Notes under the pieces: model-generated
Told to the model about the DNA's origin: nothing
Database searches by the model: none
The model's input: only the letters and a program-made list of their open reading frames with translations
Shown: one piece after another, positions 2,631-37,602 of the stretch
Position numbering within the stretch: position 1 is the stretch's first letter
How the letters are laid out: every line of letters begins with the position of its first letter
Made by a program: the position numbers and the translations under genes
Assembly (NCBI GenBank): GCA_020353155.1
Contig: CP070689.1
Span: forward strand, 3,105,299 to 3,169,298
Direction: 5' to 3'
Length of the DNA stretch: 64,000 nucleotides
DNA from: Deltaproteobacteria bacterium
GTDB lineage: Bacteria; Desulfobacterota; Syntrophobacteria; BM002

Positions 2631-3416
2631 ATGAAAATCGCGACGTGGAATGTGAACTCCATACGGGTACGGCTGGAAGCAGTCTTGAACTGGATAGACC
2701 AAGAGCAGCCAGACGTTCTTTGCCTACAAGAAATAAAGGTAACAGATGAACTGTTTCCCGCCGAACCGTTTGAGGCTCTCGGCTATCAAATAGCCGTCAG
2801 CGGGCAAAAAACCTACAACGGGGTTGCCATCCTCAGCAGGTACGAGGTCACCGAGGTTCTGGCAGGATTCCCTGACTATGATGCCGAAGGGCAGAAACGG
2901 TTAATTGCCGCAACGGTGGGCCGGGTGAGGGTGGTGAACGTCTATGTTCCTAATGGTTCAGCTCCCGATTCCCCTAAGTTCATCTATAAGCTGGAATTCA
3001 TAAAGCAGCTAAGTAATTATATGGAACGGTTGCACCTAATTGGAGAGAACCTGGTTTTAGTTGGAGATTTTAACATCGCTCCCGAACCTCGCGACGTCTA
3101 TGATGCCAAAGAGATGGAAGGTGAGATTGGCTTTCACCCCGAAGAGCGGTCCGCCCTGGCAGAATTAAAGAATTGGGGATTTGAGGATGTCTTCCGCCGA
3201 CACCATGAGGAAGGTGGTCTTTATAGCTGGTGGGACTATCGGGCTGGCGCCTTCCGCCGTGACCTGGGTTTGAGGATCGATCACATCTGGGCTTCACCGC
3301 CCCTGGCTTGTCTAAGTCTGGAATGTTCCATGGACAAAAAGCAGCGTTCTCTGCCCAAGCCATCCGACCACATTCCCGTCTGGGCCATCTTCGATCTTAG
3401 TTGGCATAGGGCATAG
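2631..3416 (+). CDS. xth: exodeoxyribonuclease III
   Basis: MKIATWNVNSIRVRL...LCLQEIK...DHIW...SDHIPV are classic ExoIII/AP-endonuclease motifs. ATG at 2631 is preferred over the TTG at 2622 used by the track. Confidence 0.9.
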   Translation: MKIATWNVNSIRVRLEAVLNWIDQEQPDVLCLQEIKVTDELFPAEPFEALGYQIAVSGQKTYNGVAILSRYEVTEVLAGFPDYDAEGQKRLIAATVGRVRVVNVYVPNGSAPDSPKFIYKLEFIKQLSNYMERLHLIGENLVLVGDFNIAPEPRDVYDAKEMEGEIGFHPEERSALAELKNWGFEDVFRRHHEEGGLYSWWDYRAGAFRRDLGLRIDHIWASPPLACLSLECSMDKKQRSLPKPSDHIPVWAIFDLSWHRA

Positions 3417-3543
3417 AGCATGGAGCATAGAGTAAGGAGCCAGGTTTCAGTGTTCAGGTTTCAGCCTTTTTGTTTTTTTCCCTGACACCTGAAACCTGAC
3501 ACCGTGGAAATTGGTGCCTAGTGCTTAGTTCCTGGTGCCTAGT
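3404..3543. repeat. word-array hairpin (GCATAGAG array | CAGGTTTCAG array | T-rich loop | CTGAAACCTG array | GTGCCTAGTGC array)
   Basis: Arms at 3441-3464 and 3482-3502 are complementary, and the outer arms are tandem 8-mers. The first words overlap the last three codons and the TAG stop of xth. Confidence 0.7.
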
Positions 3544-15036: not shown

Positions 15037-16269
15037 ATGGATTCAGCACTCATTCCCGAAGGGGTAAGACGTTGTTCTTTTAAAGCTTTTTGCCTTTGGC
15101 TGCTGGTGATATTCGCCGTAATCGGCTGGGGCGTATTGGGCGGTTTCCTGGTGCTGTGGAAGGGACTGAACGTTACCGGCCTGAACGATTATTTTGGCTT
15201 CGGCCTGTATATTACTGCAGACCTGGCAGTTATTGCTTTAGGGGCGGGAGCTTTTTTTACCGGCTTTCTTACTTATGTGATCGGTAAAAAGGAACTCAAA
15301 GATATTATCAACCTGGCCGTGGTCGTTGGGTTTATCTGCTATACTGGTGCTCAGCTGGTGTTACTCCTGGAAATTGGTCAGCCCATCCGCGGCTGGTTTT
15401 CCTTCTGGCACCCCAATGTTCACTCAATGCTCACAGAAGTGATCTTCTGCATCACCTGCTACACCATAGTGCTTACCATAGAGTTCCTACCTTTGATTCT
15501 TGAAAATCGACAATTGGACAAGGTGCCGGAATTCCACTTTTTCAGCCACAATCTCCACGAGATCATGGTGGTTTTTGCTGCAACGGGTACCTTTTTGAGC
15601 TTTTTTCACCAAGGCTCCCTGGGTGGTCTCTATGGTGTGATGTTTGCCCGGCCATTCGCCTTCCGTGAGGGATTTTTCATCTGGCCCTGGACCTTTTTCC
15701 TCTTTGTGGCATCGGCCATTGCTTCGGGCCCGGCCCTCACCATCCTGGTAACCATGATGGTACAGGGTATTACGCGGAAAAAACTAGTCCGTCGTGAGGC
15801 CATCTCTCTTCTGGCCAAGGTGACCGGCTACTTGCTTGCTTTTTATATGTTGGTCAAAATTCTCGACACTTGGTGGTGGGCGACTCACACGGCACCCAAT
15901 ATGGGAGTGAGTTTCAGCGAGTTCTTCCAGGCACCCTATGGATTATGGCTCCTTTTTGCCGAGATAGTAGTTTGCGGAATTATACCAGCCATCATCTTTC
16001 TCACGCCGAAAGCAAGGGCGGATGATGTCTTGCTCATTGTCGCCTGTGTACTGGACTGCGCCGGCATAGTCATAAATCGCTTCGTTTTTACCGTGCAGAA
16101 CTTAGCACTGCCGGTAATGCCCTTTGACCGTTTGGAAATTTATGTTCCCACCTGGCAGGAATGGGCACCTACTCTTGCCTTAATTGCCTATGGTGCCTTG
16201 ATAGTTTCACTTTCCTATCGATACCTGCCTGTGTTTCCAAGGGAGCGAGAGCTGAATCCTATTGATTGA
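15037..16269 (+). CDS. qrcD: NrfD/PsrC-family integral membrane quinone-interacting subunit (QrcD-like)
   Basis: 410 aa, highly hydrophobic with about 10 predicted TM segments. It is the last gene of the cytochrome/Mo-like/FeS/NrfD module. Confidence 0.75.
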   Translation: MDSALIPEGVRRCSFKAFCLWLLVIFAVIGWGVLGGFLVLWKGLNVTGLNDYFGFGLYITADLAVIALGAGAFFTGFLTYVIGKKELKDIINLAVVVGFICYTGAQLVLLLEIGQPIRGWFSFWHPNVHSMLTEVIFCITCYTIVLTIEFLPLILENRQLDKVPEFHFFSHNLHEIMVVFAATGTFLSFFHQGSLGGLYGVMFARPFAFREGFFIWPWTFFLFVASAIASGPALTILVTMMVQGITRKKLVRREAISLLAKVTGYLLAFYMLVKILDTWWWATHTAPNMGVSFSEFFQAPYGLWLLFAEIVVCGIIPAIIFLTPKARADDVLLIVACVLDCAGIVINRFVFTVQNLALPVMPFDRLEIYVPTWQEWAPTLALIAYGALIVSLSYRYLPVFPRERELNPID

Positions 16270-16297
16270 TCTTCTCTGAATAGAGATAGCGAAAAAG

Positions 16298-16327
16298 AAA
16301 AGCCCCGGATTTTCCGGGGCTTTTTTT
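16298..16327 (+). terminator. intrinsic terminator of the qrc-like operon
   Basis: GCCCCGG-ATTTT-CCGGGGC stem-loop (16302-16320) followed by T7 (16321-16327). Confidence 0.85.
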
Positions 16328-16344
16328 ATCCGCAAAGATTTTCA

Positions 16345-16593
16345 AGATGTGAGATATGAGATGTGCGATTTGAGATTGCGGATTTAGGATTGCAGATTGA
16401 TTGCCACATGGCACACAGCGCAGAGCGCATGATACATGACGGGAGGTCGGGCGAGACGAGCGAGACGGGATTAGTAGACGGCGGACATAAGTTACATAAT
16501 TTTGGATTTAGAATTGCGGAATCGGCTTTTTACTCTATGCCCTATGCTCTATGCCCCATGCGAAATCCCACATCCCACATCCCATATCATATC
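16345..16593. repeat. large nested word-array hairpin (GAGATGT | GATTGCGGATTT | CATGGCAC/GCGCAGAG ... centre ... GGATTTAGAATTGCGG | CTCTATGCCCTATGC | CCCACATCCCACATC)
   Basis: Outer left arm 16345-16375 is complementary to 16565-16593. Segment 16407-16431 is partly complementary to 16534-16560. The right end abuts the nadB stop codon. Confidence 0.75.
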
Positions 16594-18229
16594 AGGTCCA
16601 TTGATCCAGGCGGATTATGGTGTCCCGTTGCCAGCGCTCGTCGTCCTTCTGGGGGTGGTCGACGTTAAAATGAAGGCCCCGGCTTTCGCGACGCTTGAGA
16701 GCACAGGTCACGATCAACTCCGCAACGGTGGCCAGATTTCTCAGTTCGATGAGATCACTGTTTAGGCTGATATTGGGGTAGTGTTCGTTGATTTCTCGCT
16801 GCACCTGGGCCAGGTGATTTTGTGCCAGGTTTAACCGGCTGTCTTTACGGACGATGCCCACGTAGTTCCACATAAGGCGACGAATTATGTCCCAGTTGTA
16901 GGCTATGAGCACCATTTCGCTATCGTTGGCATTAAGTGGCATCTCCAAAGGAGGAACTTCTGGGAGAGAGATCTTTTTTCTCGGGGACAGGGGTTCGCTG
17001 TTAATCTGTTCAGCTGCTTTATGGGAAAAAACCAGGGCTTCAAGGAGGGAATTGCTGGCCAGCCGGTTGGCACCGTGAAGCCCGGTACAGGCAGATTCAC
17101 CCAAAGTATAAAGATGCTGGATGCTCGTGCGTCCATGCTTGTCAGTGCGCACTCCACCGCATATGTAGTGGGCTGCTGGCACCACAGGTATGGGCTCTTT
17201 GGTAAGGTCGATGCCAAGGGAAAAACATTTGTCATAAATACCGGGAAAACGCTGTCGCAGGAAATCAGCGTCCCGATGACTGATGTCAAGATAAACACAA
17301 TCGTCCCCACTCTGTTTGATCTCAGTGTCAATCGCGCGAGCCACTATATCTCGGCAAGCCAGATCCTTTAGGGGGTGGTATTTGGACATGAAGGCCTGTC
17401 CACGTTTGTCTATCAGCCGCCCCCCTTCTCCCCTTACCGCCTCTGAGATGAGGAAGTTTTTTGCGTGGGGGTGATAAAGACAGGTAGGGTGAAACTGGAC
17501 AAATTCCATATTTGCAACTTCTGCTCCTGCTCGGTAGGCCATGGCCACACCGTCACCGGTGGCCACATCAGGGTTGCTGGTGTAAACGTATACCTTGCCG
17601 GCACCGCCTGTGCACAATAGGGTATCCTTGGCCAGGAAGGTCAGGATACGATTTCCCTCGATATCCAGAACGTAAGCACCCCAGCACCTTTCCTGCCGCT
17701 GGGTGGTCAGCAACCCCCTTTTGAGCAGCTGACATTCGACGATCAAGTCGATGGCAATGTGATTTTCAAAAATAGAAATGTTGGGGTGCTGCTCGGCCAT
17801 GGAGACCAAGACTCGTTCCACTTCTCTGCCAGTCATATCCTGGGCGTGGACTATCCTGCTGCGAGAGTGACCCCCCTCGCGAGCTAAATCGAAGGGCACG
17901 GATTCCTGCTGTCCTCGCTGGAAGCGCACACCCATTTCGGCCAACTCCCTAATGCGGTCAGGGCCACCTTTAATCACCATGGCCACCACATCGGGATGAC
18001 AGAGCCCATCACCAGAGCTCAAGGTATCCTGAATGTGTAGATCGAAAGAATCCTCGGGGCCAAGCACCGAGGCAATCCCACCTTGGGCATAATTGGTGCT
18101 GGTTTCTACACTTTCCTTCTTGGTCACCACTGCGACCTTGCGGGTTGATGCTACCTTAAGGGCGAAAGTGAGACCAGCGATCCCGCTCCCAACCACCAGG
18201 GTATCGAATTCCATTATGTCAGTTGTCAT
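16592..18229 (-). CDS. nadB: L-aspartate oxidase
   Basis: 545 aa. FAD-binding DTLVVGSGIAGL, and succinate-dehydrogenase/fumarate-reductase flavoprotein-like motifs (GGIASV, HPTCL, GEGG). Confidence 0.9.
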   Translation of the reverse strand: MTTDIMEFDTLVVGSGIAGLTFALKVASTRKVAVVTKKESVETSTNYAQGGIASVLGPEDSFDLHIQDTLSSGDGLCHPDVVAMVIKGGPDRIRELAEMGVRFQRGQQESVPFDLAREGGHSRSRIVHAQDMTGREVERVLVSMAEQHPNISIFENHIAIDLIVECQLLKRGLLTTQRQERCWGAYVLDIEGNRILTFLAKDTLLCTGGAGKVYVYTSNPDVATGDGVAMAYRAGAEVANMEFVQFHPTCLYHPHAKNFLISEAVRGEGGRLIDKRGQAFMSKYHPLKDLACRDIVARAIDTEIKQSGDDCVYLDISHRDADFLRQRFPGIYDKCFSLGIDLTKEPIPVVPAAHYICGGVRTDKHGRTSIQHLYTLGESACTGLHGANRLASNSLLEALVFSHKAAEQINSEPLSPRKKISLPEVPPLEMPLNANDSEMVLIAYNWDIIRRLMWNYVGIVRKDSRLNLAQNHLAQVQREINEHYPNISLNSDLIELRNLATVAELIVTCALKRRESRGLHFNVDHPQKDDERWQRDTIIRLDQWT

Positions 18230-20677: not shown

Positions 20678-20704
20678 CCGCTGAGATCGCAGAGTACGCA
20701 GAGC
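20678..20704. repeat. left arm of the inverted repeat bracketing the GxxExxY gene (CGCAGAG-type words)
   Basis: ccgctgagatcgcagagtacgcagag matches the reverse complement of 21097-21122 at 20 of 26 positions (hand alignment). It ends 2 nt before the gene's stop codon. Confidence 0.7.
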
Positions 20705-20706
20705 TT

Positions 20707-21096
20707 TTATTCCTCAAGGTTCAAAACTAACCTGCGTATTCCTTTCCTAAGAACTTTTACATTAAAATTAAGCAATAATCCGACTTGGCAGCCGGAAAGC
20801 TTTAGATATGACAACAGCTGTGCCTCGTGTATCGGCTGCAATCTATCAACTGTCTTTAGCTCCACTATCACTTGTCCCTCTACAAGCAAATCCAACCGAT
20901 ACCCGCAGTCGAGTTTAACGCCTCTGTATCGCACTGGCATCGCCTTTTGTTGTTCCACCGCCAACCGACGTTCGGCCAGTTCGAAAGCCAGGCATGCCTC
21001 GTAGGCCGACTCCAACAAACCAGGCCCTAGTGCTTTGTGAACAGCCATCGCTGCACCGATGATAGCCTCTGTAATGGTATTTATATCTTTTGCCAT
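20707..21096 (-). CDS. GxxExxY-family protein (PD-(D/E)XK nuclease-like fold)
   Basis: 129 aa. [13 protein letters not shown] (GxxExxY), then D...E.K-like [16 protein letters not shown], and the typical C-terminal [19 protein letters not shown]. Confidence 0.85.
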
Positions 21097-21122
21097 CTCT
21101 GCGCCCTCACCGCTCTCTGCGG
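21097..21122. repeat. right arm of the inverted repeat bracketing the GxxExxY gene
   Basis: ctctgcgccctcaccgctctctgcgg starts immediately after the start codon (21096) and ends 14 nt before the mazG stop. Confidence 0.7.
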
Positions 21123-27449: not shown

Positions 27450-27486
27450 CACTGTCCGTTTTAGAAAACGCATAGCGCCTATAAAA

Positions 27487-27656
27487 CTAGGCACTAGGCA
27501 GTAAGCACTAAGCACTACAACTCGGAACGAAGAGCGGGGAACGCTGAATTATGGACAAAACTGATTGAAATTTCCAATGTCGAAACATTCCGAGTTTCTC
27601 GTTCCGAATTCCGCTTTATTTCCCTTGGTGTCTAGTCCCTAGTGCATAGTGCCTAG
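27487..27656. repeat. word-array hairpin (GCACTAGG/GCACTAAG array | CGGAAnn array | centre | complementary TTCCG array | CCTAGTGC array)
   Basis: Hand alignment of the outer 32 nt (27487-27518 against the reverse complement of 27625-27656) gives 24 Watson-Crick pairs, 2 G.U and 6 mismatches. The inner arms are complementary tandem CGGAA words. Confidence 0.8.
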
Positions 27657-27717
27657 TGAGGACGGCTCTGTGCTCTAAGCGTCTTTGAAACACAAACACT
27701 GATTGGAGGTGAGAGGC

Positions 27718-37447: not shown

Positions 37448-37602
37448 TTTCTCATTTGTCATTGCGCATTTGTCATTGCGCATTTATCATTACACATCGC
37501 AAATGATTTTGCTGATGTCGTTCTAATTAAATTCGCAATCCGAAATCGGGAACCCGCCCGAAGGGTGGGAGTCCGAAGGACAAATTCAGAATTCACAATT
37601 GC
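37448..37602. repeat. word arrays (CATTTGTCATTGCGCATT x2-3; AATCCGAAAT / AATTCAGAATTCACAATTGC) flanking a GC-rich core hairpin
   Basis: The core is cgaaatcGGGAACCCGCCCgaaGGGTGGGAGTCCgaagg at 37541-37580. It shares the 10-mer GGGAACCCGC with 18325-18334. Confidence 0.7.

Follow-up and report, generated by a model that had tools for sequence, protein, structure and literature searches.

A layered composite of tandem heptanucleotide repeats between qrcD and nadB in a deltaproteobacterial genome

The cyanobacterial short tandemly repeated repetitive (STRR) sequences, which Mazel et al. reportedly described in 1990, are said to be the classic heptanucleotide repeats: several tandem heptamer families lie scattered between the genes of a single lineage, reportedly with no known function. 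To our knowledge, neither a nested inverted architecture nor a strict polarity of the words is part of the STRR description. Here we analyzed a repeat element of the same general kind from another lineage, a metagenome-assembled genome (MAG) of Thermodesulfobacteriota type. The element is 249 nt long (16345-16593) and lies between the convergent genes qrcD and nadB in a 64,000-nt stretch of DNA (contig CP070689.1 of a Deltaproteobacteria bacterium), hereafter the window. Tandem heptanucleotide repeats of this kind, already published as a class, occur between genes throughout the lineage; the element is a large composite example and is not special to qrcD/nadB. It is probably a self-renewing repeat composite, maintained at the DNA level and tolerated in the nadB 3′ spacer, rather than a selected RNA or protein-binding device. 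Coordinates are those of the window; G000 denotes the window's genome and L-numbers denote homologous contigs or loci.

The closest described repeats are the GGGAATC repeats of Xanthomonas, which are ∼90% intergenic, prefer about four units, are mostly transcribed and have no known function (Rehm et al. 2015, PMC4692102). Their distance is 28 nt to the upstream open reading frame (ORF) and 160 nt to the downstream one, and 70-75 convergent pairs are found per genome (PMC4692102). The Xanthomonas (GGGAATC) and Nostoc (GGGGAYT) repeats resemble the arrays of the present genome in being dispersed intergenic 7-nt tandems of about four units near the upstream ORF, rare between divergent genes, arranged in convergent inverted pairs, and variable in length and sequence between sister species (PMC4692102). 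They differ in having one word family, against more than 20 here (PMC4692102). In addition, many families here are not G-rich, so that no quadruplex is possible, several place the G-poor arm first, and composites of several layers are built from modules that belong to different families. In Geobacter metallireducens, 7-9-nt repeats have been reported in paired sites, with three to five repeats in tandem per site (Aklujkar et al. 2009, PMC2700814). These sites also belong to a deltaproteobacterial-type genome, are mostly opposite-strand pairs at variable distance, and some of them combine two classes; unlike the arrays here, they comprise few classes in tens of copies, and they were read as global-regulator sites without a test. 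Layered composites and an analysis of turnover are not reported in that paper (PMC2700814). The TAACTGA repeats of marine Beggiatoaceae are likewise abundant intergenic tandem heptamers, from an uncultured sediment bacterium, but they consist of one word, almost always direct (169 direct sets and one indirect), and a post-transcriptional regulatory role is proposed for them (MacGregor 2015, PMC4679880).

Enterobacterial repetitive extragenic palindromic (REP) sequences and bacterial interspersed mosaic elements (BIMEs) likewise occur by the hundreds, as imperfect palindromes in spacers at the 3′ ends of genes. A REP sequence, however, is a single conserved ∼35-nt unit without heptamer arrays, and BIMEs alternate their orientation side by side, whereas none of the 182 neighbouring array pairs scored here faces outward. 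With its variable heptamer arms, and with no gene for a REP-associated tyrosine transposase (RAYT) flanked by the repeats, the element was rejected as a REP/BIME. What is distinct here is the large family vocabulary, a family-specific handedness untied to G content, and the stacking of modules into composites.

Tandem Repeats Finder (TRF) returned 1243 period-7 and 295 period-14 arrays from the window's genome, a single contig of 3.21 Mb (48.6% G+C). These arrays form ∼750 clusters, and 88% of their bases fall outside long ORFs. A few word families dominate (ACTAGGC, CGGATTT/GCGGATT, ATGCYCT, CTCATTT, GAGATGT/GGGATGT, AGCGCAT and others). Every module family of the element is one of these, its words have 15-165 other matches in the genome, and the small vocabulary is common to the species of the genus. 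Array density was 0.088 in convergent, 0.075 in tandem and 0.032 in divergent spacers. Within tandem spacers the median distance from array to upstream stop codon was 24 nt, against 64 nt to the next start, and 282 of 429 lay nearer the stop. Array size peaked at 4-5 units and fell sharply above five; 477 of the 1243 arrays had 4.0-5.0 copies and only 62 had 5.0-5.5, with no steady decay from short to long. Tandem 7-nt units, dispersed intergenic words, proximity to a stop codon and variation among close relatives are all found in the element. At 244 nt, its cluster is the sixth longest among the 771 of the genome. Elsewhere in the window, two composite clusters of the same make-up (ACTAGGC ... 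ATGCTCC) stand in opposite orientation ∼1.3 kb apart, at 1994-2144 and 3404-3543.

The preliminary description of this DNA, made from the letters alone, had proposed a repeat-rich element made of three concentric layers. The element itself is real and far from random: shuffling lowers its lag-7 self-identity from 0.55 to 0.25 (z = 11), and TRF placed period-7 rows at 16345-16399 and 16533-16588. When laid out in rows of seven, it contains 13 in-phase heptamers at 16345-16435 and 14 at 16499-16596. The 63-nt core between the two tracts lacks 7-nt periodicity and contains the CGGGCGAGA/CGAGCGAGA words, which belong to a GCGAGAC-type family that builds hairpins at other loci. The element thus reads as about seven modules of about four units (∼28 nt) each (Table 1). 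Two of the three proposed layers are inverted. The outer arms, a GAGATGT-type arm and the arm at the right end, are complementary at 21 of 26 positions (0/500 shuffles as good), and 16407-16430 is complementary to the ATGCYCY run at 18 of 24 (3/500), in agreement with the partial complementarity claimed for 16407-16431 and 16534-16560. The middle layer, described as GATTGCGGATTT words facing GGATTTAGAATTGCGG words, proved to be a direct repeat (GGATTTAGGATTGCAGA / GGATTTAGAATTGCGGA; 15/17), and its inverted score was at chance (178/500 shuffles). The modules follow each other as A B C core B C′ A′; the layers are thus not concentric, and the proposed picture holds only in part, for the outer and third pairs. 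In these two module pairs, the members happen to be complementary.

Left-form words (GAGATGT, GCGGATT, AGCGCAK, and again GGATTTA/GAATTGCGG) extend to ∼16526, and right-form words (ATGCYCY, ACATCCC) begin at 16534. The functional centre, as given by these word boundaries, is therefore near 16527-16533, away from the geometric middle. On the minus strand (nadB sense), just past the stop codon, 16556-16588 reads GGGATGTGGGATGTGGGATTTCGCATGGGG, a possible quadruplex motif that is not conserved in L002. Assignment of the element to the G-rich quadruplex repeats in the narrow sense was rejected: the GAGATGT, GCGGATT, AGCGCAK and ATGCYCY units contain no G3 tracts.

Table 1. Features of the qrcD-nadB region in the window, and the state of the orthologous spacer in relatives.
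Feature	Position	Strand	Description
qrcD	15037..16269	+	menaquinone reductase membrane subunit; NCBIfam NF041784, 1.5e-202; gene upstream of element
Intrinsic terminator, both strands	16292..16327		A-rich run, stem GCCCCGG/CCGGGGC, T7; inverted repeat
Spacer ATCCGCAAAGATTTTCA	16328..16344		remnant of TCCRCGAAGG word; 5 clustered substitutions relative to conspecific contig
Left module 1, outer arm	16345..16372		four in-phase GAGATGT-family units, left form
Left module 2	16373..16400		four GCGGATT/GGATTTA-family units, left form
Left module 3	16401..16435		about five AGCGCAK-family units, left form; conspecific has extra 7-nt unit at 16429
9-nt tandem words, GCGAGAC type	16436..16470		CGGGCGAGA/CGAGCGAGA; complementary arm missing here
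Unique core	16471..16498		without 7-nt periodicity
Direct repeat of left module 2	16499..16526		units ATTTTGG ATTTAGA ATTGCGG AATCGGC; left form despite right-side position
Polarity switch TTTTTAC	16527..16533		boundary between left-form and right-form words
Right module ATGCYCY	16534..16561		four right-form units, partial complement of left module 3
Right module ACATCCC, outer arm	16562..16596		about five right-form units; the last ones hold the nadB stop codon
nadB	16592..18229	-	L-aspartate oxidase; NCBIfam TIGR00551, 3.7e-180; convergent with qrcD
L002, L008, L017, L082	spacer		simple hairpin (GAGATGT)n - GGTAGRGACGRGTTTCTAKC - (ACATCNC)n, loop conserved
L018, sister of window's species	spacer		outer arms alike, second and ATGCCCC modules similar, core different
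L005, L006	spacer		GGCAGCA/CTGCCAG hairpin
L010 (basal)	spacer		frameshifted GxxExxY gene, TIGR04256, 2.6e-28
L004	spacer		internally deleted GxxExxY remnant within 21-nt inverted repeat
L003, close sister of L004	spacer		flanks identical; 88-nt segment with GAGATGT hairpin replaces ∼215 nt of remnant
L011, L012	spacer		neither array nor cassette

The order of left and right forms follows a rule that holds across the genome. Inverted pairs within one family are one-handed without exception (71:0, in the eight families that comprise every family with at least three pairs). The rule is not that the G-rich arm comes first, because CTCATTT precedes AAATGAG (15:0) and AAGCACT precedes AGTGCTT (11:0), so that the G-poor arm leads. 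Of the 30 commonest families, nearly all place one form toward the left of the spacer and the complementary form toward the right. Polarity was then assigned on half of the spacers and tested on the remaining half. Among the held-out adjacent arrays, left-left pairs (LL) numbered 29, left-right (LR) 116, right-right (RR) 37 and right-left (RL), the outward-facing combination, zero (0/182), and all 145 held-out spacers with at least two assigned arrays fitted a pattern of left forms followed by right forms (L*R*). The element conforms to this order. Hairpins added side by side would create an RL junction, and none was seen; additions are nested. Inspection of the word lists revealed no common rule for the left-form words in terms of stop codons or of purine, G or keto content.

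The hairpin at 16298-16327 had been described as a textbook terminator of qrcD, and its parts were confirmed in the sequence: the stem GCCCCGG (16302-16308), the loop ATTTT, CCGGGGC (16314-16320) and T7 (16321-16327). The array is thus unneeded for qrcD termination, as had been said. The hairpin does not read as a plus-strand terminator only, however. An A-rich run lies 5′ of the hairpin and the T-run 3′ of it, and the terminator scan scored it as a minus-strand terminator, with a 12-pair stem; the T7 tail is that of the plus strand. The terminator is kept in every relative with the qrcD-nadB arrangement, among them L002-L012, L017 and L018, ∼25-30 nt past qrcD, and its distance to the nadB stop varies from ∼60 to ∼560 nt among these relatives. 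The element starts 17 nt beyond it, and the nadB stop codon (TCA, 16592-16594) falls within its last units, so that its right end reaches nadB as first described. Since the terminator reads as one on both strands and is conserved in relatives, the element most likely lies in the nadB 3′ untranslated region (UTR), upstream of a terminator common to both genes, as judged from the sequence. No promoter was found in a scan of 16000-16900. A strict stem-plus-T-run scan of the genome assigned canonical intrinsic terminators to ∼77 of ∼2360 gene 3′ ends, the qrcD/nadB terminator among them. Canonical terminators (77 gene ends) were equally frequent at gene ends with and without arrays, and the idea that arrays substitute for terminators was rejected. 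The TCCRCGAAGG word, of which a remnant lies between terminator and element, is also the left arm of the inverted repeat of a GxxExxY cassette in relatives.

The history of the site was read from a qrcD tree together with the orthologous spacers (Table 1). The closest relatives by QrcD are uncultured MAGs labelled Syntrophobacterales/Deltaproteobacteria. A metagenome scan with a 19-nt pattern added L082 as the sole true orthologue (four other matches were due to chance), and an exact NadB look-up gave no further conspecific alleles. The preliminary description had suggested looking for the element between qrcD and nadB orthologues; in close relatives it is replaced, shortened or absent, and the terminator is kept. 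In the relatives with a simple hairpin, unit numbers differ independently between the two arms. The left arm in L017 (5303-5400) holds more than 10 GAGATGT/GAGATAT units and the right arm about four, which is unusually long for the class. The different core of the sister species is itself dispersed, as a ∼50-nt module of which the window's genome carries at least 18 copies, ∼90% identical. This module (GTCCTTCGGACTCCCGCCC..GGGCAGGTTCCCGGTTTCG; L018:5326-5390, with a copy at ∼37527-37585 of the window) forms two small hairpins; it is flanked by CGGATTT/CGAAATT words and is present across species. Thus the outer GAGATGT/ACATCCC arms persist across species while the interior is exchanged. No array-bearing DNA was detected in the 9 kb sampled from the L011 and L012 chromosomes.

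Change is also visible within the species. The conspecific contig L081, whose QrcD protein is identical, has a single additional 7-nt unit (ATAGCGT) at 16429 and differs from the window by 7 substitutions in the 322-nt spacer and by 10 in ∼2940 nt of the flanking genes. Five of the seven spacer substitutions are packed into 11 nt (16332-16342), the contig being otherwise ∼0.3% diverged. The window's lineage is the one that changed in this patch, because L081 retains GAAGGCTTAC, the state of other species; a donor sequence for this patch was sought in the genome and not found.

At a second locus, 27486-27658, the outermost words (GTCCGTTGT...ACAACGGAC) and an AGCGCAT/ATGCGCT layer are common to congeners, but the innermost layer differs: five relatives have an AAACGGT hairpin where the window has ACTAGGC and CGGAACG words. 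At single loci (e.g., G000:1650402-1650849), a conserved outer layer may or may not enclose an inner hairpin. Against the nearest congener (G005; 865 kb compared, 261 orthologous spacers aligned, 88.7% flank identity), spacer identity was 0.77 without arrays, 0.74 in outer flanks, 0.65 within arrays and 0.57 in loops and cores. Indels in multiples of 7 were not enriched in this comparison (7% vs 6%).

The whole-unit change between conspecifics, the replacement of the interior, the polarity rule and the 4-5-unit size argue for a process at the DNA level. The element would be transcribed passively as the nadB 3′ UTR. New modules would enter, or replace others, mainly inside hairpins already present, and gain or loss of whole units by slippage would then alter the unit number; any effect on nadB mRNA stability would be secondary. 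The preliminary description had reasoned that, termination being already provided, the array has another role. This does not follow for one of ∼750 similar clusters that is replaced or absent in relatives, changes by a unit between conspecifics and carries no RNA signature. Among the roles that it listed, selfish DNA comes closest to the evidence, and the others are unsupported.

Several points weigh against this reading of the element as a tolerated, self-renewing composite. Strict polarity, the 4-5-unit size and adjacency to stop codons are poorly explained by slippage alone, and could reflect selection or a dedicated process. Outer layers are clearly older than inner ones here and at a few further loci, but genome-wide this is only a trend: same-side outer and inner arrays had mean identities of 0.64 and 0.47 against G005 (n = 14, Wilcoxon p = 0.22). 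Furthermore, the gene boundaries were taken from an ORF heuristic, with no gene caller.

The alternative that survives best is that the element is a REP/BIME-like RNA hairpin in the nadB 3′ UTR, selected as a protection against 3′-5′ exonucleases or as a processing point. Its position between the nadB stop codon and the terminator would suit such a role, as would the enrichment of arrays beside stop codons and their depletion in divergent spacers; Xanthomonas repeats of this kind are mostly transcribed (PMC4692102). The RNA-level tests point the other way. Folds of both strands, a comparison that had been suggested at the outset, were weakly better than those of shuffled sequences (z = -1.19 for the plus and -1.74 for the minus strand), with no signature of a selected structure. 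If hairpins are kept as RNA, transition mismatches should take the G·U form on the transcribed strand. However, sense-strand G·U wobbles were not in excess among 174 hairpins from co-directional spacers (202 vs 235 antisense), and 252 intergenic inverted repeats showed no mismatch bias toward the transcribed strand. The element's own outer-arm mismatches (3 A·C vs 1 G·T) do slightly favour the nadB-sense strand. A search of Rfam 15 with 15800-17200 gave only terminator-like matches below the gathering score, at 16213-16349. No sign of selection on RNA structure was found, given the fold scores and the lack of a G·U over A·C bias. Moreover, among close relatives the interior is replaced and the unit numbers of the arms vary independently, arm copy numbers across hairpins are weakly correlated (r = 0.28), and array frequency is the same with or without canonical terminators. 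We consider a selected RNA hairpin unlikely.

It is somewhat less likely still that the arrays are written by a dedicated directional DNA process instead of passive slippage. In such a process a break or nick at the hairpin apex would be healed by extending each 3′ end with a module some four heptamers long, the modules being copied from a small template repertoire. If true, this would account for the left-before-right rule, the mixed-family arms, the 4-5-unit size and the onion-like nesting, as well as for the old outer arms and young interior at qrcD-nadB, and the 249-nt element would be a layered record of about three such events.

A protein-binding scaffold is improbable. Here a word-specific DNA- or RNA-binding protein, nucleoid-associated or of insulator type, would read about four oriented heptamers, and the arrays would be kept for binding. 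A small vocabulary common to the species of the genus, a strict polarity and a preferred size of 4-5 units are what such a protein might require, and the paired Geobacter heptamers were proposed by Aklujkar et al. to be global-regulator sites (PMC2700814). However, more than 20 unrelated-looking families would need many proteins or one of very loose specificity, orthologous sites swap families freely, and no candidate protein was identified.

Equally improbable is descent of the element from a mobile hairpin cassette, such as the GxxExxY cassette, or from a miniature inverted-repeat transposable element (MITE), of which it would be a decayed, gene-less remnant. The frameshifted GxxExxY gene of L010 occupies exactly the same site, the remnant in L004 sits within its 21-nt inverted repeat, the TCCRCGAAG spacer word beside the terminator recurs in the left arm of the cassette, and the core of L018 is a dispersed ∼50-nt module. 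Nevertheless, no GxxExxY coding residue was visible in the element on reading, although no search was targeted at it, and the genome has one GxxExxY gene against ∼750 array clusters. That gene is in the window at 20707-21096 (flanks 20678-21122; TIGR04256, 1.9e-46), bracketed by the word-type inverted repeat TTACCGCTGAGATCGCAGAGTACGCAGAG / CTCTGCGCCCTCACCGCTCTCTGCGGTAA. The inverted arms of the element recall a MITE, but no target-site duplication can be seen at 16345/16596, the copies do not share a conserved interior and the loops of simple hairpins are unique to each locus; a MITE was rejected. Plasmid and phage collections gave no match to the element. The genome's only gene with a Y1 transposase domain (G000:C1:614746-615720, outside the window) encodes a 325-aa protein with this domain at its N-terminus (PF01797, 2.3e-16). 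It is flanked by a different, 14-nt inverted repeat (GGGGTCAGGCATAA / TTATGCCTGACCCC) and by no heptamer arrays; with these unrelated flanks, a link to RAYT was rejected.

That the element itself is the nadB terminator is highly improbable: it starts at the nadB stop codon and could form a long hairpin, but it has no GC-rich stem followed by a U-run, and no U-run after either arm on either strand, whereas the separate hairpin at 16298-16327, conserved just beyond the element, has both and a U-rich tail on the minus strand, and relatives without the element retain it.

For qrcD and nadB, the element, probably a composite renewed at the DNA level, is of little consequence: it is dispensable in relatives, and there is no indication of a role in expression. 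Its value is that of a well-resolved case of a widespread, unexplained class of bacterial repeats. One orthologous site displays a conserved two-strand terminator, an old outer hairpin, interiors swapped among species, one-unit slippage inside a species and, in relatives further away, a decayed cassette. The genome-wide rules place quantitative constraints on any explanation of heptamer repeats, namely 0/182 outward-facing pairs, a family-specific handedness, a size of 4-5 units and the lack of an RNA wobble bias. Taken together, these four rules point away from a purely RNA-structural role.

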